A DNA stretch of 64,000 nt, taken from assembly GCA_039589295.1 (NCBI GenBank), contig JBDHHR010000001.1, positions 127,558 to 191,557 of the forward strand. Direction: 5' to 3'. Numbering within the stretch: position 1 is the stretch's first letter; each line of letters begins with the position of its first letter. Under the pieces are notes generated by a model. It was not told where the DNA came from, did not search any database, and saw only the letters and a list, made by a program, of their open reading frames with translations. Positions 3,877 to 21,795 of the stretch are shown here, piece by piece. The DNA comes from Gemmatimonadota bacterium (lineage in GTDB: Bacteria; Gemmatimonadota; Gemmatimonadetes; Palauibacterales; Palauibacteraceae). The position numbers and the translations under genes are program-made.

Positions 3877-4146
3877 CTAGCGGCGCAGCCCCAACTCTTT
3901 GATTGTGGCCCGATAACTATCGAAATCGTTCTTCTTCAGGTAGTCCAGCAGGCGCCGGCGCCGTCCCACCATCTTCAGCAGGCCTCGCCGGCTGTGGTGA
4001 TCTTTGGGGTGCGCCCGGAAATGCTCTGTAAGCTGCTCGATGCGCTTCGTGAGCTGAGCAGCCTGCACGGCCGAACCGCCGCAGTCGGCCTCGTGCAACC
4101 CCAATTCCTCGACGATTCTCTTCTTCTCTTCCGTACCCAAAGTCAT
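3877..4146 (-). CDS. rpsO: 30S ribosomal protein S15
   Basis: [72 protein letters not shown] is a strong S15 match. The track ORF is N-terminally extended, so the start was trimmed to the MTLG methionine. Confidence 0.9.
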
Positions 4147-4279
4147 CTGGAATTGTCCTTCGCGATTCGCGTTCACGACCGGACAACCCCCGCGGTCGCG
4201 ATGCCCGTCGAATAATAAGCAGTAAAGACTAACCTTCAGGCGCAAACATGTAAAGAAGCTGTACCGGGCCCTGACCCGC

Positions 4280-6170: not shown

Positions 6171-6516
6171 CCGAGTCTCCGAGCGCCTCCTTCAGGAGGG
6201 TCTCTATCCGCCGGGCGTGTTCCAGGGTGTGGTCCGCCTGGAACCTGAGTTCGGGGACTCGACGCAGCCGCAACTCCCGGCCCATCCTCCCGCGGATGAA
6301 GCCCTCCGCCCGTTCAAGCCCGGCAATCGCCTCGGTCACCCGCGACGGGTCGGACAGGGTGCGCACGAATACGGTGGCGTGCATGAGGTCCGAGGTCGTC
6401 TCGACCCGCGTTACCGTCACCGAGGCAACTCGTGGATCCTTCAGCTCCGCATGGAGCAAACGGGCCAGCTCCTCCCGAAGCGCACGGTTCACCCGTTCCA
6501 TCCGGCGGCGGGCCAT
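6148..6516 (-). CDS. rbfA: Ribosome-binding factor A
   Basis: RVNRALREELARLLHAELKDPRVASVTVTRVETTSDL is typical RbfA, in the usual position after infB. Confidence 0.85.
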   Translation of the reverse strand: MARRRMERVNRALREELARLLHAELKDPRVASVTVTRVETTSDLMHATVFVRTLSDPSRVTEAIAGLERAEGFIRGRMGRELRLRRVPELRFQADHTLEHARRIETLLKEALGDSDESGTPD

Positions 6517-6803
6517 CAGAGGTGTCCTATCTCCCTTTCGACCACGAACACCCGGGGATCGGACGAGACGGCCTCATCCAGCCGGGTGAGAATCGAATCG
6601 GCCAGCTTCGCGTCCGAGGTCACCAGTGCAACGCTGATCTCGGTCATGCGGCGGTCATTCTGGTAGCCCGTCTCGGCAGCGGATACCTGGAACCGAGCTC
6701 GGATCCGGTCGCGCAGACTGTGGACCACCCGGCGCTTCTCCTTGAGAGACGGGCAGTCCGGGATTCGAAGGACCCACCTCCCTACGCCTACTACCGCGAC
6801 CAC
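6516..6803 (-). CDS. DUF503 family protein (YlxP-like)
   Basis: VVAVVGVGRWVLRIPDCPSLKEKRRVVHSLRDRI has the xSLKEKRR signature of DUF503, in the conserved infB-DUF503-rbfA position. The start was trimmed to an internal GTG so it does not overlap infB. Confidence 0.7.
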   Translation of the reverse strand: MVAVVGVGRWVLRIPDCPSLKEKRRVVHSLRDRIRARFQVSAAETGYQNDRRMTEISVALVTSDAKLADSILTRLDEAVSSDPRVFVVEREIGHL

Positions 6804-6834
6804 GGACCCGGTCGGAGAGTGTGGGGGCGGGTGC

Positions 6835-9513
6835 CTACCGCTGAGTCCCACTCTCGGCCAGCGTGCGCGCGACCTCCTCCACCCGGTAGCATTCGATCAC
6901 GTCGCCGACCTTGATGTCGTTGAAGCCCTCGATGGCTATCCCGCATTCGTACCCGTCGCGAACCTCACGCACGTCTTCCTTGAAGCGGCGCAGGCTCCCG
7001 ATCCTTCCGTCGTAGATCTGGACGTACTCGCGCAGCAAACGAACCGCATGGTTCCGCTGAATCGTGCCCGAGACGACGAAACACCCGGCGACCGTGCCTA
7101 CCTTGGGAACGCGGAATGTCTCCCTCACCTCCGCCGAACCGACTAGGATCTCGCGCTGCTCCGGCTTCAGCAGGCCCTCCAGGGCCAACCTGACCTCCTC
7201 CACCGCCTCGTAGATCACGTTGTAAGTGCGGACGTCGACTCCATCCCGCTCCGCGACCTCGCGAGCCTTTGCCGTCGGGCGCACGTGGAAACCGATCACC
7301 GCGGCTGATGTGGTTGTGGCGAGCAGGACATCCGACTCGTTGATTGCGCCCACACCTCGGTGGATCACCTCGACGGCTACCTCGGATGTGCTGAGCTGCT
7401 CGAGCGAATCGGACAGGGCTTGGACCGAGCCGTCCGTGTCGCCCTTGATGATCAGGTTCAGGTTTGCTTGGCCCTCGGCTTGGATTGCCGCGAACAGGTC
7501 CTCCAGTCGAGTGCCCTTCGCCCGCCGCCGAATCTCCTTCTCCCGCTCCAGCTGCTGCCGCCGTGACACGATCTCGCGCACCCGAGCCGCATCCATCTCT
7601 ACCAGCTTGTCGCCGGCCTGCGGTACGCCCTCCAATCCCAGAACCTGGATGGGAATCGACGGACCAGCGGCGTCGACGGGGTTGCCGCGCTCATCGAGCA
7701 GCGCCCGGATTCGACCTCCAAACATTCCGCAGATGAAGTCGTCTCCGACGTTCAGCTCCCCACTCTGCACCAGCACCGTGGCCACGGCTCCCATGCCCTT
7801 GTCCAGCTCGGCTTCAACCACCGTCCCGCGCGCAGCGCCGGTGGGGACGGCCTTGAGGTCCAGCATTTCAGCCTGCAGGAGCAGCTTCTCAAGGAGGTCG
7901 TCGACACCCGCGCCGGTCTTGGCCGAGACTTCCGCCGCCAGAACCTCACCGCCGAATTCCTCGAGTATGACTTCCTGGGACAGCAGGTCCTGCTTCACCT
8001 TCTGTACGTCGGCCGTCGGCAGATCGACCTTGTTGATCGCCACAACCATCGGCACGCCGGCGTTACGCGCGTGGCTTATCGCCTCCACCGTCTGCGGCAT
8101 CACGGCGTCGTCGGCCGCGACCACCAGGATCACGACGTCCGTCATCTCAGCGCCCCTCGCCCGCATCGCCGTGAAGGCCTCGTGCCCGGGAGTATCCAGG
8201 AAGGTCACCGAACGGCCCGCGGACAGCCGAACGGTATACGCGCCCATGTGTTGCGTGATGCCACCAGCCTCGCCCGCGATCACGTTCGTCTCCCGGACAT
8301 AGTCGAGGAGGGAGGTCTTTCCGTGGTCCACGTGACCCATAACAGTCACCACCGGAGCCCGGTCGACCTTCTCGCCCTCCACTTCCGCTTCCTCCTGGAC
8401 GTCCATCAGGTCGGCCTCATACGCCTCTTCACGCACGGCCAGGTAGTCGAACGCCTCGCAGATGAGTTCGATCTGGTCGAAGTCCAGTCGCTGGTTGATC
8501 GTCACCATCAGGCCCAAGTTCTTGAACGCCGAGGTGATGATAGCCTGCGGCGTCTCGTCGATCAGGTCCGCCAGCTCGGCCACGGTGAGGAACTCGTTGA
8601 CCCGCACGGTTATCTTCTCGGCCTCGAGCTCCTGCTCGCGGCGCTCGCGCTCGGCTTCCTCCTCAGACGGAGTGGCGTCGCGCCGACGCCTACGTCCGGT
8701 CGTACCGGCGCCCATCGCCGCGAGCGTCTTCTTGACGCTCTCCTCAACCGCTTCACGGTCCACCATTCCATGGCGCTTCCGATCACGCCGGCTTCTCCGC
8801 CGCCCGTCGGTCGTGTACCCCTCGGCCTGGATATGGACGGTCCCTCCGGGGCCTGCGGAAGCGGCCGGAGCGGCTGGCACGGCGGGAGTTGAGGGCAGTC
8901 CGCGACGCACCGGGCTGGGCTTGACCACCGGCTTCCCGGGCTCTTCCGGCTCGAGAGCGGCGGCCGGCTCGCGTACCTGCTCCCCGGCGGCCGGCTCCGG
9001 TATCTGCTCCTCGGCCGGCGGCTCTGCGGCCTCCATCGGCTCAGCGGGCTCTGCCGGCATCTCGACGACAGCTTCCTCGTCGGCCTCTTCCGTAGCCTCC
9101 ACCCCGAGCTCTGCCAACGTCGGTTCAACCGCTTCCTCTTCCGCGATCACATCGGATGCTACCTCTTCCGCGGACGGTACCGGCACCTCTTCTTCCAGAA
9201 ACTCTTCTTCCTCCGCCCCGGCCACTTCCGTCGCGACCGCCTCGACCTCCTCTCCCGACGCCTCGGGCTCTACCGGCTGCGGCTGTCGACGACGCCTGCG
9301 CCTGCGTGTGGCCGGCGGCGACTCGTCCTCCACCAACTCCGCTCCAACCCGCCGTTCGCGCTCCAACCGCGCATGCAGGCGTGCGATCTGCGCCTCTGTT
9401 ACGGTGGACATGTGACTGCGAACCCGAACGTCCATCTGATGAAGCATCTGTATCAGCTGCTTGCTCTCGACGCCCAGTTCCTCGGCCACTTCGTAGACCC
9501 GGTAGTTCGTCAA
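6835..9513 (-). CDS. infB: Translation initiation factor IF-2
   Basis: 892 aa with a low-complexity acidic/Pro-Ala N-terminus followed by the G-domain (VVTVMGHVDHGKTSLLD, DTPGHEAF, NKVD) and C-terminal beta-barrels. Confidence 0.95.
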   Translation of the reverse strand: MTNYRVYEVAEELGVESKQLIQMLHQMDVRVRSHMSTVTEAQIARLHARLERERRVGAELVEDESPPATRRRRRRRQPQPVEPEASGEEVEAVATEVAGAEEEEFLEEEVPVPSAEEVASDVIAEEEAVEPTLAELGVEATEEADEEAVVEMPAEPAEPMEAAEPPAEEQIPEPAAGEQVREPAAALEPEEPGKPVVKPSPVRRGLPSTPAVPAAPAASAGPGGTVHIQAEGYTTDGRRRSRRDRKRHGMVDREAVEESVKKTLAAMGAGTTGRRRRRDATPSEEEAERERREQELEAEKITVRVNEFLTVAELADLIDETPQAIITSAFKNLGLMVTINQRLDFDQIELICEAFDYLAVREEAYEADLMDVQEEAEVEGEKVDRAPVVTVMGHVDHGKTSLLDYVRETNVIAGEAGGITQHMGAYTVRLSAGRSVTFLDTPGHEAFTAMRARGAEMTDVVILVVAADDAVMPQTVEAISHARNAGVPMVVAINKVDLPTADVQKVKQDLLSQEVILEEFGGEVLAAEVSAKTGAGVDDLLEKLLLQAEMLDLKAVPTGAARGTVVEAELDKGMGAVATVLVQSGELNVGDDFICGMFGGRIRALLDERGNPVDAAGPSIPIQVLGLEGVPQAGDKLVEMDAARVREIVSRRQQLEREKEIRRRAKGTRLEDLFAAIQAEGQANLNLIIKGDTDGSVQALSDSLEQLSTSEVAVEVIHRGVGAINESDVLLATTTSAAVIGFHVRPTAKAREVAERDGVDVRTYNVIYEAVEEVRLALEGLLKPEQREILVGSAEVRETFRVPKVGTVAGCFVVSGTIQRNHAVRLLREYVQIYDGRIGSLRRFKEDVREVRDGYECGIAIEGFNDIKVGDVIECYRVEEVARTLAESGTQR

Positions 9514-9848
9514 CTGCCGCCCTCCCGCGCGTTACCGCCGTCTTCGCTCAATTCCTCCATGATTTGCCTGGCGATATCGCCGTCCCGAACGCCCACCACG
9601 ACCACCCGCTGCCGACCGAGTGCCCGCCCCAGGGTCTCGCCGTCGCCGCATTCCGCCAGCGGGACTCCCCGCGCGGTCAGCAGCGGCACTACCCTCTCCC
9701 TGGCGTTGGGGCCCGCGTCACGCGCCAGCAGTGCCGCAGCCAGCTGGCCTTTCCTGGCAGCTTCGCGGACCGGCCGCGTGCCAACCACGGCCAGACCTCC
9801 CCGCTGTGCCAGTCCCAGCAACCGCAATGAGCGAATCTCCTGCGTCAC
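9510..9848 (-). CDS. L7Ae-family ribosomal-protein-like protein (YlxQ-like)
   Basis: 112 aa ORF between nusA and infB with an L7Ae-like pattern (GLAQRGGLAVVGTRPV...VVVVGVRDG). Its position matches ylxQ of the nusA-infB operon. Confidence 0.6.
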   Translation of the reverse strand: MTQEIRSLRLLGLAQRGGLAVVGTRPVREAARKGQLAAALLARDAGPNARERVVPLLTARGVPLAECGDGETLGRALGRQRVVVVGVRDGDIARQIMEELSEDGGNAREGGS

Positions 9849-11422
9849 AACGCCTCCGTTCCCCCCTGACCGTCGGCCTCAGGGCTCAACTTCCCCGCAT
9901 CATCGGCGGGAACAGAGACCGCAGCATCGTCATCCACGTCGCTGGTCTCCGCAGCATCGCCGGCCTCGTCGACATCCGGAGCGGACGCCTCCAGGCTCTC
10001 GGCCTCGATTGCCTCAGCCCCGTCTTCGTCCGTTCCCTCGACCTCCGATTCCTCAGCATTCGACTGGGCCGACTCGGCTTCGAGGCGTGCTGAGGCCTCG
10101 TTCCCCTCCTCCACCACCGTGAGTTCCTCGATCATGCCCATCAACAGCGCGGCTTCCTCCTCGCCGACGCCCGGCACCTGAAGGAAGTCGTCCCGCTCCA
10201 TGTCCAGCACGTCGAAGAAGGTGTTAATCCCTGCTGCCTGCAGCGCGGCAAGAGTGGCCGGCGTTACCCCTTCCAGCTCCGAGAGCGGGAAGTCCGCGAC
10301 CTCGTATTCCTCGCCGCCGCCGAACAACGCTGACTCTGCTCCACGCGCCAACCAGTCGCGGCTGGAAAAGAGGTCTATCTGCCATCCGATGAGCTGTGAG
10401 GCGAGCCGCACGTTCTGCCCATTGCGTCCGATGGCAAGGGAAAGCTGATCCTCGTCCACGATCACCGTTGTCACGTGCCGCTCCGCGTCCGACAGCACCT
10501 TCGCCACTTTCGCCGGGGCCAGAGCGCGCCGAGCGAAGATCTCCGGATCAGGATGCCAGGGAACGATGTCGATGCGCTCGCCGCTCAGCTCGGACACCAC
10601 CGCCTGCACCCGCGACCCCTTGAGCCCGACGCAGGCTCCAACGGGATCCACGGACTCGTCACGGGACGATACCGCCACTTTGGTCCGTCCGCCGGCCTCC
10701 CGGACGATCTCCTTGATCTCCACGATTCCCTGGTAGATCTCGGGCACTTCTATCGCAAACAGGGCCTGCACGAAAGCCGGGTCGGCCCGGGAGAGGATCA
10801 GCCGCGGGCCGCGCGGCGTCTCCTCCAGCTTCTTCATCACCGCCCGGATCGTCTCCCCCTGTCGGAATCGCTCGCGAGGGTTCTGCTCGCGCCAGGGTAT
10901 GATCGCCTCCGCTTCCCGCGAGCGGTTCAGCATCACCACGATCTTGCCTCGCTCGATGGCCTGGACTTCACCGGAGACGAGCTCTCCGGCCATGTCGTTG
11001 AACTCCTCCCGAATACGATCTCTCTCTCCCTCGCGCACGCGCTGGATGATCCTTTGCTTGGCAGCCATTACGGCGTTTCGCCCGAAATCGGAGAACGCTA
11101 CAGGAATCTCCAGGAGATCACCAACCTGAAAGTCCGAATCATCCCAACGGGCCTCCTCCAACGAGATCTGTCGGGCCGGATCCTCCACCTCTTCCACTAC
11201 TTCCTTGAGCACGATGATCTTGATGTCCCCGCCGGGAAGGATCTCGATTTCAGCCTCCACGGGCCCGCCGAAGCGTCGCGCCAGGGCAGCGTGGATGCCG
11301 TCCTTGATCAGATCGACCAGCTCCTCATCCGACAACGACTTGTTCGCCGTCATGACGCGAAACGCTTCAACGACTGGAATCTGATCGCTCATCTTCAGTC
11401 TTTCATCCTCCCTGCGTGTCAC
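9845..11422 (-). CDS. nusA: Transcription termination/antitermination factor NusA
   Basis: N-terminal domain, S1 and two KH domains (GACVGLKGSRVQAV, AIGRNGQNVRLASQL), plus an acidic C-terminal tail. It overlaps rimP by 4 nt. Confidence 0.9.
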   Translation of the reverse strand: MTRREDERLKMSDQIPVVEAFRVMTANKSLSDEELVDLIKDGIHAALARRFGGPVEAEIEILPGGDIKIIVLKEVVEEVEDPARQISLEEARWDDSDFQVGDLLEIPVAFSDFGRNAVMAAKQRIIQRVREGERDRIREEFNDMAGELVSGEVQAIERGKIVVMLNRSREAEAIIPWREQNPRERFRQGETIRAVMKKLEETPRGPRLILSRADPAFVQALFAIEVPEIYQGIVEIKEIVREAGGRTKVAVSSRDESVDPVGACVGLKGSRVQAVVSELSGERIDIVPWHPDPEIFARRALAPAKVAKVLSDAERHVTTVIVDEDQLSLAIGRNGQNVRLASQLIGWQIDLFSSRDWLARGAESALFGGGEEYEVADFPLSELEGVTPATLAALQAAGINTFFDVLDMERDDFLQVPGVGEEEAALLMGMIEELTVVEEGNEASARLEAESAQSNAEESEVEGTDEDGAEAIEAESLEASAPDVDEAGDAAETSDVDDDAAVSVPADDAGKLSPEADGQGGTEAL

Positions 11423-11925
11423 AGATCGTTGCCCACGTCGTATGCCAGAGTCATCCGGGAGATCGCCGCCAGCGGGATCTCTACCCGCTCGCCGCCAACC
11501 CGCACAACGACCCTCTCGTCGCTGCCCTCACTCCCCGCGAGGCCGGCGAGCTCTCCCTCAACCTGCCGGCTGCCCCCCGGCAGGAGCCCGAAGCCTCGGA
11601 CGCGTACTTTCTGACCGGTGAACCGCTCGTAGTCCTGTCGTCGAACAAGCGGTCGCTCTATCCCCGGAGACGAGACCTCGAGGATGATGTCCTCACCGGG
11701 CCCCGACTGAGCCTCCATGAACGCCTGAACCTCCCGACTCACGAGGGCGCAATCCTCCACCGTGACACTCGAGTGGCCCGGCCGTCCGCCTGGTCGATCC
11801 ACGCGAAGACGAAACAGGGGGCGTCTCCGCCCCCCACCGCGCTCCAGCGAAACCAGCTCGTATCCTATGCCGGCGAGAAGCTCTTCCAGCTCTCTCTCGA
11901 GACTCGAACTCATGCGATGACCCAA
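11419..11925 (-). CDS. rimP: Ribosome maturation factor RimP
   Basis: LERELEELLAGIGYELVSLERGGGRRRPLFRLRVD is a RimP match, and it sits directly upstream of nusA. Confidence 0.85.
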   Translation of the reverse strand: MGHRMSSSLERELEELLAGIGYELVSLERGGGRRRPLFRLRVDRPGGRPGHSSVTVEDCALVSREVQAFMEAQSGPGEDIILEVSSPGIERPLVRRQDYERFTGQKVRVRGFGLLPGGSRQVEGELAGLAGSEGSDERVVVRVGGERVEIPLAAISRMTLAYDVGNDL

Positions 11926-11965
11926 CTGGACCCCCGCGCGACTGGCACTACGTCACCGGAACCCC

Positions 11966-12000
11966 AAACAAAAAAGTGGGGCCGAAAGACGTTTCCCCAC
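11966..12000 (-). terminator. Rho-independent terminator between yfiH and the rimP operon
   Basis: On the minus strand GTGGGG-(13 nt loop)-CCCCAC is followed by a TTTTTTGTTT run. It lies about 150 nt downstream of yfiH and upstream of rimP. Confidence 0.5.
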
Positions 12001-12157
12001 TTCAGATCCAAGCGCTCGAACGCCCGGTCGGCCAGCACCGGGCGAGTTTCTTCGTTAGAGAAACTACAGGTGCCGTATCTTTATCGCAAACCCCTTGGCG
12101 CCGTTGCAGGTCACCGGAGTGGTCGTGCCTGACCCGGCGGTCGGCGTGATCCACTCG

Positions 12158-12950
12158 CTAGGCCAGCCTCCAGCCGAGGTAGGCCACCATCCGGCCCGCC
12201 CCCGGGCCCGATACTCGATGGGAAGGTAAGTCCTCCGGACCGCACCGGGTGCAAAGCGTCGAGCGGGCTATGTGCTCCGGCCTTGCCCCCAGTCGAACCG
12301 CCTGATCGGCCAACTCGGCGCGCAGGTCGACCCGGCCGTCACCAGCCCGCTGACCGCCGAGCGCATCCACGACGTCGCCGCCGACCTCATAGCAGTCCCT
12401 GCAGATGGCCGGGCCCAAGTGCAATCGCAGCGATCGGGCTCGTGCGCCGAAGGCCGACTCGAGCGCCCCAACTCCCCGCGCCAGAACGCCAGCCGCCACG
12501 CCACGCCACCCGGCGTGAAGGAGAGCCATGGCTCTCGTGTGCGGATCCAGGATGTATACGGGAACGCAGTCGGCCGCGGTCACCGCCAGAAGCAGGCCCG
12601 GAGTGCAACATGCCAACCCGTCCGCCTCTCCCGGCACGTGGACCCCGCACGCCGGCGGCTCATCGAAGCACACCACGCGGGTGCCGTGCACCTGCCGGGC
12701 GACCGCCGCAGCGGCCAGGCCGAGCAGCCTCGCCAGCTCCTCATAGCTCGCCAGAACGGACCAGGCGGAGGAATGGCCCTGGAGCCCGAAGTCCGGCTGC
12801 CGATCCTCCTGCGAGCCATCAGTTCCCCCGCCGCCTGTTGCCACCCCGGCCGAGAGACCCGGGAACCTCGCTTCCCACTCTTCGTTCCGAAGGAGTGCGA
12901 AGCGGCCCGCGCGCGCGCGTCGCTCGGTGACGACGCCTCCGACCGTCTCT
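12158..12950 (-). CDS. pgeF: YfiH/PgeF family (laccase-domain / purine nucleoside phosphorylase-like) protein
   Basis: The C-terminal two-thirds of the track ORF match DUF152/YfiH (VCFDEPPACGVHVPGEADGL..TAADCVPVYILD..ALLHAGWRGVAAGV). The N-terminal 120 aa of the track ORF overlap murA and are non-protein-like, so the start was trimmed. The true start is uncertain and may be non-ATG. Confidence 0.7.
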
Positions 12951-12963
12951 CCATGCGACGACT

Positions 12964-14247
12964 TCAGCAGGGAACCTCCACACGCTCGATCATCGCGCCC
13001 ATCGCCCGGAGACGCTCGTCTATGCGCTCGTAGCCCCGTTCGATCTGTCCGATGTTGTGGATCTCGCTCTCTCCCTCGGCTGCGAGGGCCGCTATGAGGA
13101 GAGCCATTCCGGCCCGGATGTCGGGACTCTCGAGGACCGACCCGTGCAGGTGGGACGGGCCCACGACCACGGCGCGATGAGGATCGCACAGGACTATGCG
13201 GGCGCCGAGGGAAATCACTTTGTCGGCGAAATACATCCGTGACTCGAACATCTTCTCGTGAATGAGGATGGTCCCTCGGCACTTGGTGGCCACCACCAGC
13301 GCGATGCTGATCAGGTCCGCCGGGAAGGCCGGCCATGGCCCGTCCCCCAAACTCGGAATCTGATTCCCCAGATCCGATTGGATCTCCAGGGACTGCTCGG
13401 AAGGCACGTGAAGCTCCTGGCCGTGGAGATCGCAGTGTATCCCCAGGCGCTCGAACCCTACGCGCAGCGGAGCGAACAGCCCGGGATCCACCTCTTCGAC
13501 CGTCACCTCGGAGCCTGTAATGGCCGCCAGGCCGACCAGGCTTCCAATCTCGATGTGGTCGGGACCGAGGCGATACTCACCCCCACCCAACCGCTCCACG
13601 CCCGTGATGGTCAGTTCGTGCGTACCGACTCCCTCGATGTCTGCTCCCAGCTGGCCGAGGAAGCGGCACAGGTCCTGGACGTGCGGCTCGGCGGCCGCGT
13701 TACGCAGCCGCGTCTGGCCCTCGGCGGTCACTGCGGCAAGGATCGCGTTCTCGGTGCCCGTCACCGACGGCTCATCCAGGAAGATCTCGGCCCCGCGCAG
13801 ATGTCTGGCCCGAAGTTCATAGCTGTCGCCCGCCTCGACCTCCGCACCGAGCCGACCCAGGGCCAGGAAATGGGTGTCGAGCCGACGCCTGCCGATCACG
13901 TCGCCTCCGGGCGGCGGCAGGACGACCTCGCCGAAACGGGCAAGCAGTGGACCCGCGAGGAGAATGGAAGCTCTGATCTGCCTGGCCAGCCGCGGATCCA
14001 TGGTGCCGCCTTCAAGGTCGGCTGCGTCGACCCGCACCGTGTTCCCATCGGCCCACTCAACTTGCGCCCCCAGACTTCCCAGGAGTTCCACCAGCGTGCG
14101 GACATCTCCGATGTCCGGCACATTCCGCAACACCACCGGCTCCTCTGCGAGCAGTGTGCCCGCCAGGATCGGAAGGGCTGCGTTCTTGTTGCCAGCCGGC
14201 CTGAACCGGCCGGAGAGGCGACTTGGGCCCTGGATGCGGAAGTACAT
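12964..14247 (-). CDS. murA: UDP-N-acetylglucosamine 1-carboxyvinyltransferase
   Basis: 427 aa MurA: MYFRIQGPSRLSGRFRPAGNKNAALPILAGTLLAEEPVVLRNVPDIGDV with the EPSP-synthase fold length. Confidence 0.95.
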   Translation of the reverse strand: MYFRIQGPSRLSGRFRPAGNKNAALPILAGTLLAEEPVVLRNVPDIGDVRTLVELLGSLGAQVEWADGNTVRVDAADLEGGTMDPRLARQIRASILLAGPLLARFGEVVLPPPGGDVIGRRRLDTHFLALGRLGAEVEAGDSYELRARHLRGAEIFLDEPSVTGTENAILAAVTAEGQTRLRNAAAEPHVQDLCRFLGQLGADIEGVGTHELTITGVERLGGGEYRLGPDHIEIGSLVGLAAITGSEVTVEEVDPGLFAPLRVGFERLGIHCDLHGQELHVPSEQSLEIQSDLGNQIPSLGDGPWPAFPADLISIALVVATKCRGTILIHEKMFESRMYFADKVISLGARIVLCDPHRAVVVGPSHLHGSVLESPDIRAGMALLIAALAAEGESEIHNIGQIERGYERIDERLRAMGAMIERVEVPC

Positions 14248-14751
14248 TGGAACGACTCCTCGGCTTCGTCATCGCCCGACAGGGCCGAGCGCTCGTACAC
14301 CCCGACGGCAAGTTAGACGACCGCCTCGCGAAGTGGCAACGTACCTGCCCGGATCGGCTTGACAGGCTTTCTCGCCGCCGTCTATGCTTGCCGGGATCTC
14401 GCCGTGCGGCGGCGCGTCTCGGCCCGTACTCACCACCGGGATTCCGAGCGATGAAGCTGTCAGAGTTTGGTCAGCCGGGGCTCGTGGTCGCCGGATGGAG
14501 CGCCGGTCGATGTGTTCTTCGTCCTCCTTTCTCCGCCGGATCAGGCGAACCAGCATATGGTCGCTCGCACGCATCGCGCGACCGGCGCGTCACGAGGAGT
14601 TCGTCGAAGGGCCGCGCAAGTGCGCGGAAGCGCAGGAGGTGGTCGACCACATCGGCCGGTACGAGCGCGAGTACCTCTAGCTCGTGGCTGAAGACGCGAC
14701 CTGGGAACCCCTGGCGCAAGCTCGCGACCGGAGGTGGAAGACGAGAGCCGT

Positions 14752-15105
14752 ATGCAGCTTCTGATAGCGGTCATCAATGATATCGATCGTACCGAAGAGA
14801 TTCTGTCGGGCTTTCTCGAGATCGGGATAACCGGTGCGACCCTGGTCGACTCGGAGGGCATGGGCCGAGTTCTGAGCCACGATATCCCGATCTTCGCCGG
14901 CCTGCAGACTCTGATCTCTCGATCCCGGCCGCAGAATCAGACGCTGTTCAGCGTGATCGACGACCCGTCGAAGGTCGACCGGGCGATCGAGCTCATTCAG
15001 GAGGTCTGCGGGCGCTTCGACAGCCCTGCCACAGGCATCGTATTCACGATTCCGGTCACGCGGGTGGTCGGGCTCGCCTCGGAGTTGACCGCACCGGAGG
15101 GGTGA
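14752..15105 (+). CDS. P-II (GlnB)-like signal-transduction-fold protein
   Basis: MQLLIAVINDIDRTEEILSGFLEIGITGATLVDSEGMGR aligns with GlnB [38 protein letters not shown]. The C-terminal part aligns with GlnB beta-3/beta-4, but the T-loop region differs. GGAGG lies upstream of ATG 14752, and the start was trimmed from track ORF 14734. Confidence 0.6.
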   Translation: MQLLIAVINDIDRTEEILSGFLEIGITGATLVDSEGMGRVLSHDIPIFAGLQTLISRSRPQNQTLFSVIDDPSKVDRAIELIQEVCGRFDSPATGIVFTIPVTRVVGLASELTAPEG

Positions 15106-15554
15106 GGCTCCTTCGGACGGGGTGCTACTGACGCGTCCGTCGTTCCCGGTTGGAACCGCCCGGGGACGGTTCAGGCTCGGTCTGCTCTCGCAGGGAGGTG
15201 TGTCCACGCCATGGCGGTATCCGTGTCCCTCGCCTTTTTCGCAGTGGCCGAAGGGCGCGAGTCGCTGGAACGCTTCTTCGCGGGGGGTTGATGGTAAACC
15301 AGGTGATCGGCCCGCACGCGTCGAAGCGGATCCTCGTATCACGTGGCAAAATAGAAGCTTCCGAGCCCAGCGCCGGTTAGCCCGGTCCTGGAGCGAGGCC
15401 CAACAAGGGGCGTTCGGCCGACAGGGAAGCCGACGTTGTCACTGGCCCGCTTCCTGCAATATCAAGGGTTCGAAGGGCACGTTGTAACGGCAGGCCCCGC
15501 TCCGTATCTTTTCGGCAGGCCGGGCAGACACCCTCTCCGTGATCGGGAGGACCC

Positions 15555-16007
15555 TTGAGCTTTTACGAGATCCTGGTGACCGTCTCGTTGATCCTGTGGA
15601 TCCTGATCAGCATCGGGTTGATCGTCGCGTTTCTGACGCTCATTCCCAAGCTGATCAAGACACTTCGGAAGATAGACGACGCACACGACCTTTTCGCCGC
15701 GAAGACCGTACCGCTCATGGAGCGGGCCGATCAACTGGTCGACCAGGTTAGCCAGATCTCTACCGCTCTCGTTTCGGACGTCGAAGTCGTCGACCGTACG
15801 GTCATTCGAGCCGCCGAGTCGGTGGAGCGCATGGTCGAGCTCGCTGAGGAGCGCGTCTCGGAGATCAACGCATTGCTTGAGGTTGCGGTTGAGGAGGCGG
15901 AGGAGACCTTCTTCTCCACAGCGGCACTCCTGCGTGCACTGCGCATCGGCCGGGGGAAGAAGAAGCGGCACCGGCTGATGGGCGGGGAACGCAGGCGCTT
16001 CGGTTGA
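15555..16007 (+). CDS. Small membrane-anchored coiled-coil protein (DUF948-like)
   Basis: N-terminal TM helix (ILVTVSLILWILISIGLIVAFLTLIP) is followed by a long helical region and a basic tail. The 3' end overlaps the next gene by 4 nt. Confidence 0.5.
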   Translation: MSFYEILVTVSLILWILISIGLIVAFLTLIPKLIKTLRKIDDAHDLFAAKTVPLMERADQLVDQVSQISTALVSDVEVVDRTVIRAAESVERMVELAEERVSEINALLEVAVEEAEETFFSTAALLRALRIGRGKKKRHRLMGGERRRFG

Positions 16008-17002
16008 GCCGCCGGGCCTTTCTGTGCAGCATCGCACTGGCGTCGGTACTCCTCCTGGTGGTGCCGGATGCAGCTTTCGCCTGGGGCCCTGCGACCCATA
16101 CGCAGATCGGTCTGGAGGTCCTCCGCTCCCTCAATCTCTTCCCGGCACCCGTCGCCTCGCTGGTCGCCCAGCATCCCATCGATTTCCTGTATGGCAGCCT
16201 GGCCGCCGACATTTCCATGGCCAAGAAATACGCCCCCGTGGGCAGGCACTGCCATCACTGGCACGTGGCCCGCGAGGTCTACCGCGTTGCCGGTGACGAC
16301 TCCCGTCTGCGGTCGGCGATCCTCGGGTACCTTTGTCACCTGGCGGCCGACGTGCTGGCCCACAACTCGTTCGTGCCGCGCATGCTGCTCCTCACCTCAT
16401 CGACGCGGGCACTGGGACATTCCTACTGGGAACACCGCATGGATTCCGATGTCGGACCGGAGTACTCGAGGCTTGCTCGGTGGATAGTAACGCGTTTCGA
16501 CCACTCGAGAACCGACGAGCTCTTCCGACGGGTACTCTCCAGCACACTGTTCAGCTTCAGCACGAACCGCCGGATCTTTCGCGGGATGATTCGGATTAGC
16601 GGGAACGAGAGCTGGCAGGCCATCTTCGATTCGGTGATAGACAACTCTCGCTGGGATCTCGACCCCACCGAGGTAGCCCGATACCAGCGCCACGGTTTTC
16701 AGCTGGTGGGGGACTTCCTCATCCGAGACGTGGAGGCCTACGCCACGGGGCTGGATCCTATCGGGGCGGAGAGTCTGGCCGAAGCCAAGAGGATCCGGCG
16801 CCGGGTGATCATGGCCGGCGGGTGGCGCACCACTGAGGCGCTGGCGGCAACGGCGGACCACCACTTTCCTCTGCCCGGGGGAGCGACAGCGCTGTGGGAC
16901 GCGCGAGGTTATACCACCGGCCTGGCCGGCGAGATACTGGAAAAGGCGCTGGCCCACAGCGGCACCAAGCCGCTGCCGGTGCTGGACGCCGTGCTGGCCT
17001 GA
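16004..17002 (+). CDS. Secreted zinc-dependent phospholipase C / S1-P1 nuclease superfamily protein
   Basis: Signal peptide MSRRAFLCSIALASVLLLVVPDAAFA is followed immediately by WGPATHTQIG. Mature N-terminal Trp1 plus His is the hallmark zinc-ligand arrangement of B. cereus PLC and P1 nuclease. Further His/Asp-rich segments follow (HCHHWH, CHLAADVLAHNSF). Confidence 0.65.
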   Translation: MSRRAFLCSIALASVLLLVVPDAAFAWGPATHTQIGLEVLRSLNLFPAPVASLVAQHPIDFLYGSLAADISMAKKYAPVGRHCHHWHVAREVYRVAGDDSRLRSAILGYLCHLAADVLAHNSFVPRMLLLTSSTRALGHSYWEHRMDSDVGPEYSRLARWIVTRFDHSRTDELFRRVLSSTLFSFSTNRRIFRGMIRISGNESWQAIFDSVIDNSRWDLDPTEVARYQRHGFQLVGDFLIRDVEAYATGLDPIGAESLAEAKRIRRRVIMAGGWRTTEALAATADHHFPLPGGATALWDARGYTTGLAGEILEKALAHSGTKPLPVLDAVLA

Positions 17003-17066
17003 CGGATCGTCTGCCGGGTTCGCTCTCCGCGGCCTGTCGCTCGCGGCCAACCTGTAACATTCCGAG

Positions 17067-19337
17067 CTACACGGGGCGCAAACGGGCGTGCGCTACCATG
17101 ACCTTCTTGCATCCGAAGCGTCCGAAGTCGATTTCCGCCTTGGTCGACCGACCTGCCCCGCTCACCGAGACGATCTCGCCTTCGCCGAAGCTGGGGTGGA
17201 TGACCCGCGCCCCGACTTCCAGGTGCAACTGCTCCTGCGAGTCGGAAAAGTCGTAGCGGAGACCGGACGCATCGGATGGAGGCGACTGCCGGCGCCACGC
17301 GAACCCGCTCGGCGACGTGCCGGCGCGAGAGGATTCCATAGCGAAACCTTCCTTGTCCACCTCTTCCCGACTCCAGCGCGAGCGCCGCCGCGTGCCGCCC
17401 GCTGCCCCAGCGGCGATTCGGTACTCGACCGGTCCCTCTGGCAGCTCAGAGAGAAACGATGAAGGCTGTGCGAGTACCTCGTTACCGTAACGCCAACGAC
17501 GGTTTGCATGCGTCAGGAATAGCCTCTCCTGCGCGCGGGTGACCCCCACGTAGAACAGCCTGCGTTCCTCCTCCAGCTGGTGGCGGTTGTCCATGGCGCG
17601 CGCCAGAGGAAAGAGCCCTTCCTCGAGCCCGGCCACGAACACGACCGGAAACTCGAGCCCCTTCGCGTTGTGGATGGTCATGAGAGTCACGCCGGGGGCA
17701 CTTTCCTCATAATCATCGATATCGGCTCGCAAGGATGCCGACTGAAGGTAGAGCTCCAGCTCCGACGCTCCATCCCGTCCGTCCTCCACCTCCGCGGGAT
17801 CGAACGCCGCAGCGGCCGCCAGCAGCTCGGTCAAGTTGGCAATCCGGTCGGCCCCATCATCCTCCCGCTCCAGCGCTGCTACCAGTTGAAAGCAGCGAAT
17901 GCACTCCCGAATCACCTCCTCGACAGTCGCATTCCGGCCAAGCTGTGCCAGGGAATTGATCCCGTCCGTGAAGTCGACCAGAGCCCGCGCTCCAGCAGGC
18001 GGCATGCCGGAGAATTCGGTGGCTCGCTCGGCCCCCTCCAGCAGCGTAACCCCCAGCGCTGCCGCTTCCATCCTGAGGCGGTCCAGGGTCACCCCGCCGA
18101 CGCCCCGCCTCGGCCACGACACGGCCCTGGTAAAAGCAGCCTCATCCGCCGGGTTCACCGCCAACAGCAGATACGCCAGCACATCCTTGATCTCGCGCCG
18201 CTCATAGAACCGAACTCCTCCCACGATGCGATAGGGCATCCGCGCGCGTCGGAGCGCATCCTCGAACGGCCTGGATTGGGCATTCGTACGATAGAGCACC
18301 ACGCACTGCTCGGGATCGTGACATCCTGCCAGCGTCTCGATTCGGCTCACGACCCACGTCGCCTCAGCCCTCTCGTCGGCCACCTGAACGACCGTCACCC
18401 GTTCGCCGGATGGGCGCTCCGTTCTCAACCGCTTCTTCTTCCGGTCGCGGTTGCGTGAGATCACCTCGTTGGCCACATGGAGGATGGAAGGCGTCGAGCG
18501 GTAGTTCTGCTCCAAGCGAACGACTTCCGTGCCACGAAAGTCACGTTCGAAGTCGAGGATGTTCCGCAGATCCGCACCGCGCCATCCGTAGATTGACTGG
18601 TCGTCGTCCCCGACCACACAGATGTTGCCGTGCCCGCTGGCCAGACGCCGGATCATCCGGTACTGCGCATGGTTGGTGTCCTGGTACTCGTCCACCAGAA
18701 CGTGGTGAAAACGACCGGCATACCTGTCGCCTACCTCGGTGTCCTCGAGCAGCCGGGTCGTGTGCACCAGCAGGTCATCGAAGTCATACGCGCTCGAGCG
18801 GATGAGGATTTTCTCGTAGAGGGGGTATACCTCGGCCACTGCCCGCGAAGCCAGGTCGAAGGCTGCAGCGGCGTACTCCTCGGGACCCACCAGGGCGTTC
18901 TTGGCGCTCGAGATGCGGGCACGAAGCGCCCCGGGCGACCAACGCTGGGCGTCGAGCCCCGCTTCCTCCATGGCGTGCTTCAGGGCGCGCAGGGAGTCTT
19001 CCTCGTCATAGATGGAAAACGTCGAGCCCCGGGCCAGCCGGTCTCCCTCCCGACGCAGGATCCGGGCGGCAATCGCGTGGAATGTTCCTATCCACAGTCC
19101 ACGCGGCTCCTCACCCAGGAGTCCGGCTATTCGCTCACCCATCACGCCCGCAGCCTTGTTGGTGAACGTTACGGCCAGGATGCGGCCCGGGCGGACACCT
19201 TCCTCATCGATGAGACGGGCGATCCGTGCGGTGAGAACCCTTGTCTTGCCGGAACCCGCCCCCGCAAGGACCAGGAGAGGGCCCTCGGCGTGTTCCACCG
19301 CGTGTCGCTGTTCGGGATTAAGAGCGAGACCGCTCAA
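17067..19337 (-). CDS. uvrD: ATP-dependent DNA helicase, UvrD/PcrA family
   Basis: Walker A LAGAGSGKTRVLTARIA and other UvrD-family motifs. 756 aa with a C-terminal Tudor-like tail. The start appears to be TTG, overlapping the upstream stop (TTGA). Confidence 0.9.
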   Translation of the reverse strand: MSGLALNPEQRHAVEHAEGPLLVLAGAGSGKTRVLTARIARLIDEEGVRPGRILAVTFTNKAAGVMGERIAGLLGEEPRGLWIGTFHAIAARILRREGDRLARGSTFSIYDEEDSLRALKHAMEEAGLDAQRWSPGALRARISSAKNALVGPEEYAAAAFDLASRAVAEVYPLYEKILIRSSAYDFDDLLVHTTRLLEDTEVGDRYAGRFHHVLVDEYQDTNHAQYRMIRRLASGHGNICVVGDDDQSIYGWRGADLRNILDFERDFRGTEVVRLEQNYRSTPSILHVANEVISRNRDRKKKRLRTERPSGERVTVVQVADERAEATWVVSRIETLAGCHDPEQCVVLYRTNAQSRPFEDALRRARMPYRIVGGVRFYERREIKDVLAYLLLAVNPADEAAFTRAVSWPRRGVGGVTLDRLRMEAAALGVTLLEGAERATEFSGMPPAGARALVDFTDGINSLAQLGRNATVEEVIRECIRCFQLVAALEREDDGADRIANLTELLAAAAAFDPAEVEDGRDGASELELYLQSASLRADIDDYEESAPGVTLMTIHNAKGLEFPVVFVAGLEEGLFPLARAMDNRHQLEEERRLFYVGVTRAQERLFLTHANRRWRYGNEVLAQPSSFLSELPEGPVEYRIAAGAAGGTRRRSRWSREEVDKEGFAMESSRAGTSPSGFAWRRQSPPSDASGLRYDFSDSQEQLHLEVGARVIHPSFGEGEIVSVSGAGRSTKAEIDFGRFGCKKVMVAHARLRPV

Positions 19338-20518
19338 GCCTCAGCCTCATGGACCGGTAGCTCCAGAGAGAAGCTCGCCCCGCTGGCAGAATGCTCGAGT
19401 CTGACGGATCCTCCGTGCATCTCGACGATGATGCGACGGGCCAGCGAGAGGCCGACACCCCACCCCCCCGTCTTGGTCGTCACCCCGACCTCGAACAGCC
19501 GCGTCTGCAAGTCCGACGGGATACCCGGACCATCGTCGGCGAAGCGGATGTGGTAGCGCCCCGCGTGCACGCCCGCGAAGGTTACCGAGATGCGCCCTTC
19601 ACGTCCGGCGAGTGAGTCCAGGGAGTTCTTGAACAGGTTCTCGAACGCCCACTCCAGAAGTGTCTCGTTCCCCAGCACCTTGGGGCAGTCGGTCGGCAGG
19701 TCCACATTCAGTTGCACTCTGGCGCCCATCGACGGCAGCCGCGCCTGGAAGTAGTCGGCCAGTCGCTGAATCACCGCGGTGACGTCCACGGGCTGCAAGG
19801 CCGGCGGCCGACCGATCAGGTCGAAGCGACGCGAGACCTTGTCCAGCCGCTGCACGTCGTGTTCCATCTCGGCCAGCACGTTGATCCCGTCTTGCGAGAA
19901 GGTGCCCACCGGCACCGAGTCTTCCAGGAGTTCCAGCCAGCCTACCAGCGAGCTGAGAGGAGTACCCATCTGGTGAGCCGATTCCCGGGCCATGGACGTC
20001 CAGATTCGCTCCCTCTGGCTCTGGGCAGAGGTCCGCAGCATCCAGATCGCGGTGCCCACGACTCCCAGCAGTAGCGCTGCCTGCAACCACGGAATCCACT
20101 TGAGACGCCTGAGGAACAGCGGTTCCCCGTAGTGCACCTGAAAGTTCTTGTCCGCATCCACGAGAGGCTGGTTCTCGAGATCGAGCCGGTCCACGTAATC
20201 CCGGACCCGCTCCAGGTCCTGTGGGTCGTCGAGGCTTGCCTCGAACGGGAGGTTCCTCACCAGAGCGGGGTTTCCTTCCAGATCGGTCTGAACCACCGGA
20301 ACGCCCAGGTCGTATAGATCGAAGAGCAGAGCAAGCTCGCCCTCGGGCGTCAGGCCCTCGGGCGAAGCAGCCGCCTGCACGACCTGGAAATAGATGCGGC
20401 TGAACAACGCGGCGTCACGCCTCAGCTCCTGCGCTATCTGCCAGGTATAGACGAGGTAGGACAGGAGCACGCCTGAGAACGCGACGATGATGGCCAGCGG
20501 TACGAGACGTCGCCTCAC
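19334..20518 (-). CDS. Sensor histidine kinase (two TM helices, periplasmic loop, HisKA + HATPase_c)
   Basis: Two hydrophobic segments flank a roughly 110 aa loop. The H-box is ESAHQMGTPLSSLVGWLELL and the N/G boxes are NLFKNSLDS and DDGPGIP. A GTG start overlaps the serS stop (GTGA). No response regulator is adjacent. Confidence 0.85.
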   Translation of the reverse strand: MRRRLVPLAIIVAFSGVLLSYLVYTWQIAQELRRDAALFSRIYFQVVQAAASPEGLTPEGELALLFDLYDLGVPVVQTDLEGNPALVRNLPFEASLDDPQDLERVRDYVDRLDLENQPLVDADKNFQVHYGEPLFLRRLKWIPWLQAALLLGVVGTAIWMLRTSAQSQRERIWTSMARESAHQMGTPLSSLVGWLELLEDSVPVGTFSQDGINVLAEMEHDVQRLDKVSRRFDLIGRPPALQPVDVTAVIQRLADYFQARLPSMGARVQLNVDLPTDCPKVLGNETLLEWAFENLFKNSLDSLAGREGRISVTFAGVHAGRYHIRFADDGPGIPSDLQTRLFEVGVTTKTGGWGVGLSLARRIIVEMHGGSVRLEHSASGASFSLELPVHEAEA

Positions 20519-21795
20519 TGAACCGCCAGCCGCTCCATGCTCATGTGCTGGCGCAGCGCCCCGGGAATCTCGACGCTCCCATCGGCAGACTGGTTGTTCT
20601 CCAGCAGCGCCACGATCGTCCGGGCCAGCGCGACACCGGACCCGTTCAGAGTGTGAGCAAAGACGGGCTTCTCCCCGGCGTTCGATCGATATCGAATGTC
20701 TGCCCGCCGCGCCTGGTAGTCGGTGTACGATGAACAGCTCGAAACCTCAAGCCACTTGCCGACCCCGGCCGACCAGACTTCGAGATCGTAGGTGAGGGCG
20801 TTGGCGAAGCCCAGGTCGCAGGCCGGCACGACGATCCTACGATAGGGGAGGTCGAGTCGCTCGAGCACCTCCTCCGCATGACGCGTCAGGCGCTCCAACT
20901 CCTCTTCAGAGGACTCCTGCCTGGTGAAGCGAACGAGTTCGACCTTGTCGAACTGATGAACGCGCAACAGCCCTCGTGTGTCGCGCCCGGCTGCTCCGGC
21001 CTCGCGGCGGAAGCATGGCGTATAGGCGACGTACGCCAGCGGCAGGTCGGCGCCGTCGAGGATCTCCCCCCGGTGGAGGTTCGTCACCGGAACCTCGGCC
21101 GTCGGCACCAGAAACAGATCGTCCGGATCCGTTCGGTAGGCGTCGTCTTCGAACTTCGGAAGCTGGCCGGTGTTCGTCAGGCTGACGCGGTTCGTGAGGA
21201 ACGGCGGGTGGACCTCCACGTAGCCGTGCTCGTCTGCGTGCAGATCGAGCATAAACTGGACCAGCACCCGAGACAGACGGGCACCGGCACCCAGCAGGAG
21301 TGGAAAGCCCGAGCCGGCGAGCCGGGCACCTCCCTCCAGATCCAGGATTCCGAGTCGAGATCCAAGGTCCCAGTGCGTGGCGGGCTCGAAGTCGAAGGCC
21401 CGTATCTCGCCCCATTCGTGCACGATCTCGAAATCGCCTTCCCCGCCGTCCGGGACCCTGACATGAGGCAGGTTGGGGATTCCGAGCAGCTCGGCCCGCA
21501 GCGAACTCTCCACGTCCTGTAGCTCGGCATCCAGCATCCGGATGCTCTCCGCCACACCTTGCATCGAGTCGATGAGCTCCGAGGCGTCCTCGCCGGCTCG
21601 CTTGCGCTCTCCCACTTCCCGCGAGACTTCATTCCGTCGGGCCTTCAGCACCTCCACCTCAGCGATTACCTGCCTCCGCCGCTCGTCCAGCCGCAGGGCC
21701 GCCGCCAACGCTGCCAGTGAATAGGTGTCCCCGCGCCGCGCCAGGCTGGCCCTGGCCTGTTCCGGATCCGCGCTGAGCGACCTGATATCGAGCAT
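20515..21795 (-). CDS. serS: Seryl-tRNA synthetase
   Basis: N-terminal coiled-coil tRNA-binding arm and class II core. 426 aa: MLDIRSLSADPEQARASLARRGD... Confidence 0.95.
   Translation of the reverse strand: MLDIRSLSADPEQARASLARRGDTYSLAALAAALRLDERRRQVIAEVEVLKARRNEVSREVGERKRAGEDASELIDSMQGVAESIRMLDAELQDVESSLRAELLGIPNLPHVRVPDGGEGDFEIVHEWGEIRAFDFEPATHWDLGSRLGILDLEGGARLAGSGFPLLLGAGARLSRVLVQFMLDLHADEHGYVEVHPPFLTNRVSLTNTGQLPKFEDDAYRTDPDDLFLVPTAEVPVTNLHRGEILDGADLPLAYVAYTPCFRREAGAAGRDTRGLLRVHQFDKVELVRFTRQESSEEELERLTRHAEEVLERLDLPYRRIVVPACDLGFANALTYDLEVWSAGVGKWLEVSSCSSYTDYQARRADIRYRSNAGEKPVFAHTLNGSGVALARTIVALLENNQSADGSVEIPGALRQHMSMERLAVQ

Follow-up and report, generated by a model that had tools for sequence, protein, structure and literature searches.

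In a window of 64,000 nucleotides (nt) from a Gemmatimonadota bacterium (GenBank assembly GCA_039589295.1, contig JBDHHR010000001.1, positions 127,558 to 191,557 of the forward strand), three plus-strand genes, which code for a P-II-like protein, a membrane protein and a secreted hydrolase, are found between two runs of minus-strand genes. We propose, with a probability of about 0.6, that this stretch is an eroded form of an ancestral Gemmatimonadota locus, in which the P-II-like regulator has outlived its usual partners, an EIIA protein and a cation/proton exchanger. The original prediction, made from the sequence letters, saw no partner for the P-II-like protein besides the membrane protein and the hydrolase. 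No other partner is intact here, but relatives carry Na_H_Exchanger and EIIA_2 genes, the remnants of which are still recognizable in the window. At the level of comparative genomics the question of the missing partner is answered; it is probably an exchanger of the cation/proton antiporter (CPA) type, co-regulated with a PtsN-like EIIA.

The P-II-like gene and its flanking remnants

The features of the locus, all on the plus strand, are the following.

14359–14388: putative sigma-70-like promoter (TTGACA, 18 nt, TATGCT; 10/12 match to the consensus)
14451–14680: pseudogene of a stand-alone, PtsN-like EIIA_2 protein, with profile matches in two adjacent frames
14752–15105: intact gene for the P-II-like signalling protein, 117 amino acids (aa), with a conserved T-loop, SEGMGRVLSHDIPIFAGLQTLISRSRPQNQT; ATG start, homologues starting at the same Met
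15122–15380: 3′ remnant of an Na_H_Exchanger (CPA) gene, frameshifted, covering profile positions ~322–414 of 434
15555–16007: gene for a DUF948-like, membrane-anchored helical protein, 150 aa, TTG start with GGGAGG ahead; one N-terminal transmembrane helix (~residues 5–30), then an amphipathic helical domain, with a basic tail at the C-terminus
16004–17002: gene for a predicted secreted hydrolase of the trinuclear-zinc phospholipase C (PLC)/P1-nuclease superfamily (Zn-PLC/P1-type), 332 aa; TTG is the earliest start in the open reading frame (ORF), and the signal peptide ends AFA/W

The three co-directional ORFs with minus-strand gene runs on both sides (261–14247 and 17067–21795) had been described correctly before, and so had the 4-nt overlap of the last two genes, in which the membrane-protein stop and the hydrolase start share TTGA at 16004–16007. 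The coordinates of the ORFs were right, but the gaps beside them had been taken as intergenic, and the gene remnants at 14451–14680 and 15122–15380 were overlooked.

A profile built from full-length (at least 140 aa) EIIA sequences of related loci matched two adjacent frames of 14451–14680, with E-values of 5e-11 and 7e-9. The opening ATGAAGCTGTCAGAGTTT aligns with the EIIA start codons of the relatives and encodes MKLSEFGQPGLVVA (~14 codons), after which the reading jumps out of frame to …GAPVDVFFVLLSPPDQANQHM…, and a second frameshift leads to …SLARIARPARHEEFVEG…YEREYL and the stop codon. About 233 nt are missing internally, corresponding to codons ~15–91 and including the active-site His, and the C-terminal ~60 codons are split between two frames. 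With the His region deleted and the N- and C-terminal pieces in different frames, the remnant did not pass as a complete EIIA_2 domain.

The gap downstream of the P-II-like gene was compared with a profile of 49 exchangers (434 positions), using 300 dinucleotide shuffles as the control. We observed three colinear matches in three frames:

15122–15205: exchanger profile positions 322–350
15205–15279: exchanger profile positions 351–376
15285–15380: exchanger profile positions 382–414

Their summed score was 11.5 bits, compared to a maximum of 6.5 bits among the shuffles (n=300). The first ~325 codons of the exchanger gene are deleted and the original stop, TAG, is retained at 15378–15380. In blastn searches, the gap aligned to the last ~250 nt (the 3′ end) of the exchanger genes of 10 relatives; tblastn with the exchangers of single relatives reached an E-value of only 0.001, with a risk of low complexity. 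The remnant did not pass as a complete PF00999 domain, and no other exchanger or EIIA homologue was found within the 64-kb window.

Comparison of strains gave consistent results. In strain L003, one additional nt after 15281 brings most of the exchanger remnant into one frame (17.1 bits, E 7.7e-8, profile positions 351–414 of 434), and two additional nt after 14559 restore one EIIA frame. Among four independent assemblies of the species, compared over 3.8 kb, there were two indels, one in each remnant, besides a 28-nt deletion in L002; the P-II-like gene had one synonymous single-nucleotide polymorphism. As the strain-level indels fall in the remnants, we concluded that both of them are real, are not sequencing errors and drift neutrally.

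Upstream of the EIIA start, the pair CTTGACAG … (C/T)ATGCT was kept in most of 14 aligned relatives and was degenerate in a few of them. This putative promoter presumably belonged to the ancestral EIIA/P-II-like/exchanger operon and presumably still drives the P-II-like gene.

The P-II-like ORF scored 30.3 bits on the Pfam P-II model (PF00543, residues 4–107; gathering score 25), so that the P-II-like label given to it originally stands. The alignment with GlnB/GlnK through beta1/alpha1 and the divergence of the T-loop were also confirmed. A profile of 19 homologues retrieved P-II proteins from the PDB (E 3e-4). The AlphaFold2 model made from 19 homologues (pLDDT 75) shows the core topology of P-II proteins, in the order E2–8, H11–23, E29–33, loop 34–62, E63–69, H72–86 and E94–101, with a low-confidence loop at residues 39–53. 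All of the top 50 Foldseek matches of this model were P-II/GlnK(GlnB) proteins, with a probability of 1.0 and TM-scores of 0.5–0.6. When a profile was aligned with 2gw8 and 2eg1, both the G-x-G-R motif at the T-loop base and a single Gly of the B-loop proved to be kept.

Judged from its ratio of nonsynonymous to synonymous substitution rates (dN/dS) against relatives, 0.08–0.13, the P-II-like gene is under purifying selection. Residues 34–66, the T-loop region, are the most conserved part of the protein (81–94% identical in every locus class), compared to 58–68% for the remainder in the four well-sampled classes. The P-II-like ORFs of all classes are intact, with lengths of 114–126 aa.

Conservation in Gemmatimonadota and probable partners in other phyla

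We found 1850 close relatives of the P-II-like protein, all from Gemmatimonadota where the source was named, with 61–85% identity within the phylum. A scan with one genome per species yielded 178 species having a relative of the gene, and the synteny survey was done by tblastn on the best 80 of these 178 species loci. Nearly all of the 80 were labelled Gemmatimonadota; a few were unclassified and one was titled Akkermansiaceae. A single architecture was observed: murA on the minus strand, followed by an optional EIIA_2 gene, the P-II-like gene, an optional Na_H_Exchanger gene (~415 aa), an optional CN_hydrolase gene, DUF948-like and/or YtxH-like genes, and the Zn-PLC gene. This order was in the same place next to murA in 80/80 loci. 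Loci with enough flanking sequence were distributed as follows.

EIIA and exchanger beside the P-II-like gene: 43 loci
EIIA only: 9 loci
Exchanger only: 3 loci
Neither EIIA nor exchanger: 16 loci
Truncated EIIA, without exchanger: 1 locus

The Zn-PLC hydrolase gene was at most 6 kb downstream of the P-II-like gene in all 61 loci where the flank allowed this to be seen, and a DUF948/YtxH-like gene was ahead of it in 60 of them. A CN_hydrolase gene often lay between the exchanger group and this envelope pair. In one relative (L006) the EIIA_2 gene (PF00359, 154 codons) scored 110.6 bits and the Na_H_Exchanger 59.6 bits; complete exchangers of the relatives scored 59.6–112.7 bits on PF00999. On the strength of this synteny, the locus is ancestral to and conserved in Gemmatimonadota, and is native here.

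A few loci deserve separate mention. The locus titled as an Akkermansiaceae metagenome-assembled genome (MAG; L034, CAXMRU010000183.1) has the Gemmatimonadota arrangement, with MurA 78% and the P-II-like protein 76% identical to those of the window, and this contig is probably mis-binned and of Gemmatimonadota origin. In seven Longimicrobiales loci (L024, L029, L030, L038, L039, L042, L056), murA lies ~3–4 kb upstream, compared to ~0.7 kb, and therefore extra genes have been inserted. L004 and L028 lack the EIIA gene and have an insertion sequence-type transposase pair (HTH_23/DDE_3) next to murA.

Searched with a profile, 1.84 billion cluster representatives yielded 968 P-II-like clusters, of which 424 had E<1e-10. 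The family is distinct, ~110–120 aa long, with the consensus …GATV.DS.GMG….PIFA.LR……NKTIF…PG.G..FT.PV. We examined nine neighbourhoods from outside Gemmatimonadota, with members ~30–45% identical. In 6/9 of them a PF00999 exchanger gene came directly after the P-II-like gene; these were from a CSSED10-310 bacterium, a Thermodesulfobacteriota bacterium, the cultured Aminobacterium colombiense and three further contigs, and some of the gene pairs abut or share 4 nt. In 2/9 the P-II-like gene was immediately downstream of EIIA_2, and in the remaining context it was an orphan. A PLC or DUF948 gene was found beside it in 0/9. Adjacency to a transporter gene was thus observed across distant lineages, in these six contexts and in 46/72 assessable Gemmatimonadota loci, where the exchanger gene follows the P-II-like gene.

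Gene fusions pointed to the same EIIA partner. Four clusters of 289–314 aa are EIIA_2::P-II-like fusions, in which the P-II domain is 42% identical and has the same T-loop motif. The family is further fused to PilZ (P-II::PilZ, 46 bits on PilZ) and to the release-factor methyltransferase PrmC (PrmC::P-II, in a Bacillota MAG); the latter could be a merged gene call. The PilZ, PrmC and EIIA_2 fusions are clusters P0250, P0155/P0272, and P0216 and P0423–P0425. The recurring adjacency and the fusions lead us to suggest an EIIA(Ntr)-type protein and a CPA-type exchanger as the functional partners of the family. By gene adjacency, the module would belong to a functional class, the transporter-coupled P-II-like regulators, with binding and regulation being putative. 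We found no description of such a P-II-like/CPA/EIIA module in the open-access literature.

The partner proteins stay below the cut-offs of the curated NCBIfam models. The exchangers are nearest to the CPA2 and K+/H+ antiporter models but fall under all curated cut-offs (CPA2 40–47 bits versus 238), and the EIIA proteins of the relatives are PtsN/FruA-like, also under the equivalog cut-offs (PtsN 75 versus 138.7). In NCBIfam, no curated family held for the three window proteins or for the exchangers of the relatives.

Two observations concern the exchangers of different phyla. Those of Gemmatimonadota (L006–L085; D203 in L011 numbering) have an invariant S-L-D, while P-II-linked exchangers of other phyla (L088, L093, L095) have the classical CPA2 ‘DD’ (VVAMDDA) at this place, a difference that may reflect different ion coupling. 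In the CSSED10-310 context (L086), a 398-aa protein without a Pfam match is encoded at 538–1734 between the P-II-like and exchanger genes, and this protein may also belong to the module.

Proposed course of events, alternatives and known systems

We propose that the ancestral order was a divergent murA, followed by the promoter, EIIA_2, the P-II-like gene and the CPA-type cation/proton exchanger gene, and then by the DUF948/YtxH-like and Zn-PLC-type hydrolase genes. In this lineage, a ~233-nt deletion would have gutted the EIIA gene and a ~1-kb deletion would have removed the exchanger gene except for its last quarter. What is left of both genes drifts neutrally, and the P-II-like gene stayed intact behind the old operon promoter. 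The P-II-like protein would be a small signal transducer of the cytoplasm, presumably trimeric, and its conserved T-loop would gate or tune an exchanger that lacks a built-in cytoplasmic regulatory domain, acting together with or under a phosphorylatable EIIA(Ntr)-like protein. As the exchangers lack an RCK/CorC-type region, we suggest that the P-II-like protein would act in trans and supply this missing regulatory region. At least one further target elsewhere in the genome probably keeps the gene alive here, since the protein and its T-loop are kept in many species without adjacent EIIA and exchanger genes. The genes for the membrane protein and the hydrolase would be translationally coupled and make up an envelope module of their own, a neighbour by synteny only. 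The gene identities, both remnants, the synteny, the linkage of the genes in other phyla, the fusions and the purifying selection are observations; the physical interaction, any effector ligand, the ion specificity, the second target and the independence of the envelope module are what we infer.

Several observations speak against this explanation. The ATP/2-oxoglutarate ligands of P-II proteins (Q39, K58, K90 in G87-D-G-K90, R101 and R103) are not conserved in the profile alignment; V40, Q61, A-T-G-I96, G107 and A109 are aligned to the canonical ligands of 2gw8 and 2eg1. CPA exchangers are dimeric and AmtB and SbtA are trimeric, so that the plug-type docking of GlnK and SbtB is not simply transferable. 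The sample of neighbourhoods from other phyla is small, and within Gemmatimonadota the association of EIIA with the exchanger (Fisher p=4e-7) was calculated from loci counted without regard to kinship. The synteny with the envelope pair holds at every assessable Gemmatimonadota locus, and a functional link of this pair to the P-II-like protein is possible. Finally, the loss of the partners here may be recent, and intactness of the gene in this strain alone is not proof of function.

The last of these points leads to the idea that the P-II-like gene is a functionless relic, whose partners have gone and which has had too little time to decay. Both partner pseudogenes can still be recognized, which puts their loss at a fairly recent date, and the dN/dS calculated with distant relatives mostly reflects the time before it. 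We nevertheless consider a relic unlikely, as 19 species without a trace of adjoining partners keep an intact ORF (114–121 aa) with 81% identity in the T-loop, the putative promoter is retained, and within the species the remnants have gained indels and the P-II-like gene only its one synonymous change. It is rather improbable, too, that the P-II-like protein senses a metabolite and controls the DUF948-like protein and the secreted Zn hydrolase, with the exchanger and EIIA being optional inserts. This would be in keeping with the synteny of the three genes in 60–61 of 61 loci irrespective of EIIA and exchanger, and with the distance of only 70–150 nt between the P-II-like and membrane-protein genes in several species after exchanger loss. 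Synteny inside one phylum may be purely historical, however. Between the two groups there is often a CN_hydrolase gene, the fusions involve EIIA_2, PilZ and PrmC and not envelope proteins, and outside Gemmatimonadota an exchanger or EIIA gene adjoins instead in 8/9 contexts. As the membrane protein and the hydrolase are absent from 9/9 of those contexts, they are not the best candidate partners.

That the protein is a canonical GlnB/GlnK, or a known receptor such as the cyclic di-AMP (c-di-AMP)-binding DarA/PstA or the bicarbonate regulator SbtB, has little probability in our view. The passed Pfam P-II threshold is in its favour, and so is the name ‘nitrogen regulatory protein P-II’ given to it by several sources. 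The database labels of these proteins are ‘P-II family nitrogen regulator’ or ‘hypothetical’. In Firmicutes, c-di-AMP controls K+/H+ antiporters, which makes a cyclic-dinucleotide ligand conceivable. However, the scores on the specific models were far below the cut-offs (GlnB/GlnK equivalogs NF008111, 16.1 bits versus 202, and NF007946, 13.5 versus 181; DarA profile NF058593, 13.3 versus 140; Pfam CdAMP_rec PF06153, 12.1 versus 27). The T-loop modification site (Tyr51/Ser49) is not kept, with Phe/Ala aligned to Tyr51, and the ligand residues listed above are likewise lost. The C-terminus, …GLASELTAPEG, has no Cys pair and thus is without the SbtB-type redox R-loop. No amtB or glnA was present among the called genes of the Pfam-annotated neighbourhoods (three of Gemmatimonadota and nine of other phyla; the 80-locus tblastn survey was queried with the locus genes only), and PF00999 was the only transporter beside the P-II-like gene in the neighbourhoods examined. 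Least probable, to a degree that we regard it as refuted, is the proposal that the three genes are a horizontally acquired island with A/T-richer codons and an opposite orientation. They do lie on the strand opposite to the flanks, and total GC is low in the P-II-like (0.61) and membrane-protein (0.60) genes, among the lowest in the window. The low GC of these two genes is due to codon positions 1 and 2, that is, to amino-acid composition. When the three genes were compared with the other 47 genes delimited in the window (50 in all), their GC content at synonymous third positions (GC3s) was 0.791, 0.793 and 0.792, compared to a mean of 0.771 (standard deviation 0.033) for the 50 genes; they rank 37–39 of 50 counting from the lowest. 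A/T-ending Ile, Asn, Asp and Phe codons, which the original prediction saw in excess in the P-II-like and membrane-protein genes, made up 17/56 in these two versus 609/2307 elsewhere (Fisher p=0.54) and 35/111 in all three genes (p=0.23). Codon chi-square values of the single genes against the pooled rest were 30–37, with 40–41 degrees of freedom. The hint of acquisition, which was to be given up if the codon statistics did not differ, is withdrawn accordingly, as these statistics match the rest of the window and the synteny is conserved: position and orientation beside murA are the same in the 80 species loci surveyed. The locus has neither a tRNA gene nor, apart from short two-copy repeats, flanking repeats of any significance, and scanning four flanking genes revealed no domain of the integrase or transposase type.

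The proposed survival of the P-II-like regulator can be set beside known systems. Few signal transducers are as widespread as the P-II proteins, which gate AmtB and SbtA through their T-loops. To our knowledge, only the GlnK–AmtB and SbtB–SbtA transporter pairings are mechanistically understood. The protein described here resembles GlnK and SbtB in its ~115-aa P-II fold with a long T-loop, which is its most conserved segment, and in having its gene immediately beside a transporter gene, often abutting or overlapping, in several phyla. It differs from them in four respects. Its transporter is an Na_H_Exchanger (CPA) protein, of a family that forms dimers and not trimers; the gene order is P-II-like and then transporter; the canonical nucleotide/2-oxoglutarate residues and Tyr51 are missing; and EIIA_2 is a frequent third partner, sometimes fused.

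The other comparison is with Escherichia coli, where PtsN in its unphosphorylated form binds the CPA1 K+/H+ antiporter YcgO and inhibits it by docking on its C-terminal cytoplasmic RCK/CorC region, with the genes being unlinked (PMC11808508). Similarly, the stand-alone EIIA_2 of the relatives has the His motif …GIAVPHA… and is genetically tied to a cation/proton antiporter. Here, in contrast, the exchanger is ~415 aa long without a cytoplasmic domain, and the P-II-like gene lies between the EIIA and exchanger genes, so that its product might provide the module for docking or sensing. The EIIA of the relatives also scores below the PtsN equivalog cut-off, and that of the window is dead.

More tentatively, and as a possibility on which we would not insist, these proteins could be an undescribed P-II branch of detachable regulators of domain-less CPA exchangers, wired to the nitrogen-related phosphotransferase system (PTS-Ntr) via a PtsN-like EIIA, to which they would be fused in some lineages, and having an additional, exchanger-independent target. 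The branch would comprise ~420 clusters at 50% identity (E<1e-10) from Gemmatimonadota, Synergistota, Thermodesulfobacteriota, Bacillota and candidate phyla. If so, carbon/nitrogen or energy status would be linked to K+/Na+/pH homeostasis, and the second target would explain why the regulator was kept after both partner genes had decayed. A third pairing, of P-II-like proteins with dimeric cation/proton antiporters and EIIA(Ntr)-type proteins, would extend the P-II principle to ion and pH homeostasis and raise a structural question, as a regulator with three-fold symmetry would have to dock on a two-fold transporter. The module would also offer a genetic handle on PTS-Ntr control of K+/H+ antiport outside enterobacteria, with Aminobacterium colombiense as a cultured carrier. 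The orphaned gene is a natural partner-loss experiment, in which the protein is retained without its neighbours. For annotation, the locus shows that two ‘intergenic’ stretches are pseudogene remnants of a kind that pipelines miss or mis-call.

Envelope genes, flanking genes and minor observations

The membrane protein has a hydropathy profile with a peak of 2.9. It was called DUF948-like originally, and this holds in part: the protein is membrane-anchored and helical and DUF948 (PF06103) is a recurrent best match, but always below the gathering score of 37.2. The window protein scored 13.3 bits; among six orthologues scanned, DUF948 was the best match of five (16.7–34.9 bits) and one had no match. 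Like DUF948/YtxH proteins, it has an N-terminal transmembrane helix followed by amphipathic helices, and YtxH-type paralogues adjoin it in relatives; unlike them, it has a strongly basic C-terminal tail and stays sub-threshold. We know of no function for either DUF948 or YtxH.

The label of a secreted Zn-PLC/P1-nuclease was borne out. The hydrolase scored 58.7 bits on Pfam Zn_dep_PLPC (26.8 required), and it both passes the superfamily profile threshold and has the all-alpha fold. The nine zinc ligands expected for the superfamily, with an N-terminal Trp that signal-peptide cleavage exposes, have candidates in W27 (after AFA), H32, D69, H82/H84, H112, D116, H120, H139 and E143, each kept in all or in at least 90% of 25 homologues; their roles were assigned by pattern and order, not by structural superposition. 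A sequence search against the PDB gave nothing relevant. The hydrolase is 10–16% identical to the solved structures of Zn-PLCs (Bacillus cereus PLC, Listeria PlcB and the N-domain of clostridial alpha-toxin) and S1/P1 nucleases. It differs from these in its spacing of H-x3-D-x3-H, compared to H-x3-D-x5-H, and in having ~150 further residues at the C-terminus, a helical region without known relatives. It would act, putatively, on lipid or nucleic acid.

The genes flanking the locus are on the minus strand.

12964–14247, minus strand: MurA-type gene (PF00275), with a Cu-oxidase_4 gene beyond it
17067–19337, minus strand: UvrD/PcrA helicase gene, followed by a histidine-kinase gene

In strain L002, the 28 nt absent downstream of the hydrolase gene (17040–17067; around 4050 in L002) clip the uvrD stop codon. 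The uvrD gene of this strain is called as 957 aa, antisense across the hydrolase gene, and the hydrolase is uncalled though its sequence is 100% present. On the other side, the minus-strand ORF at 12158–12940 scored 158.5 bits on Cu-oxidase_4 (PgeF/YfiH-like). A public JGI record instead calls an opposite-strand gene at 12272–13033 (plus strand, 253 aa; 3521–4282 of L001) without a Pfam match, which is probably a wrong-strand call in a high-GC genome.

An Rfam scan of 12000–20000 (E≤1) gave one chance lncRNA match only, and the 450-nt gap is not a known RNA. A terminator scan of the locus gave nothing exceeding shuffle expectation, and a promoter scan detected none upstream of the membrane-protein gene. 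A 24-nt inverted repeat, 88% complementary, pairs 15292–15315 in the exchanger remnant with 15722–15745 in the membrane-protein gene, 406 nt apart; by a rough estimate it is longer than chance readily yields in 3.3 kb. In the murA–EIIA intergenic region, the pair CAAGTTAGA … GGCAACG at 14309–14341 is kept in 14 relatives. On the minus strand it reads TTGCCA, 17 nt and TAACTT, and is plausibly the divergent murA promoter.

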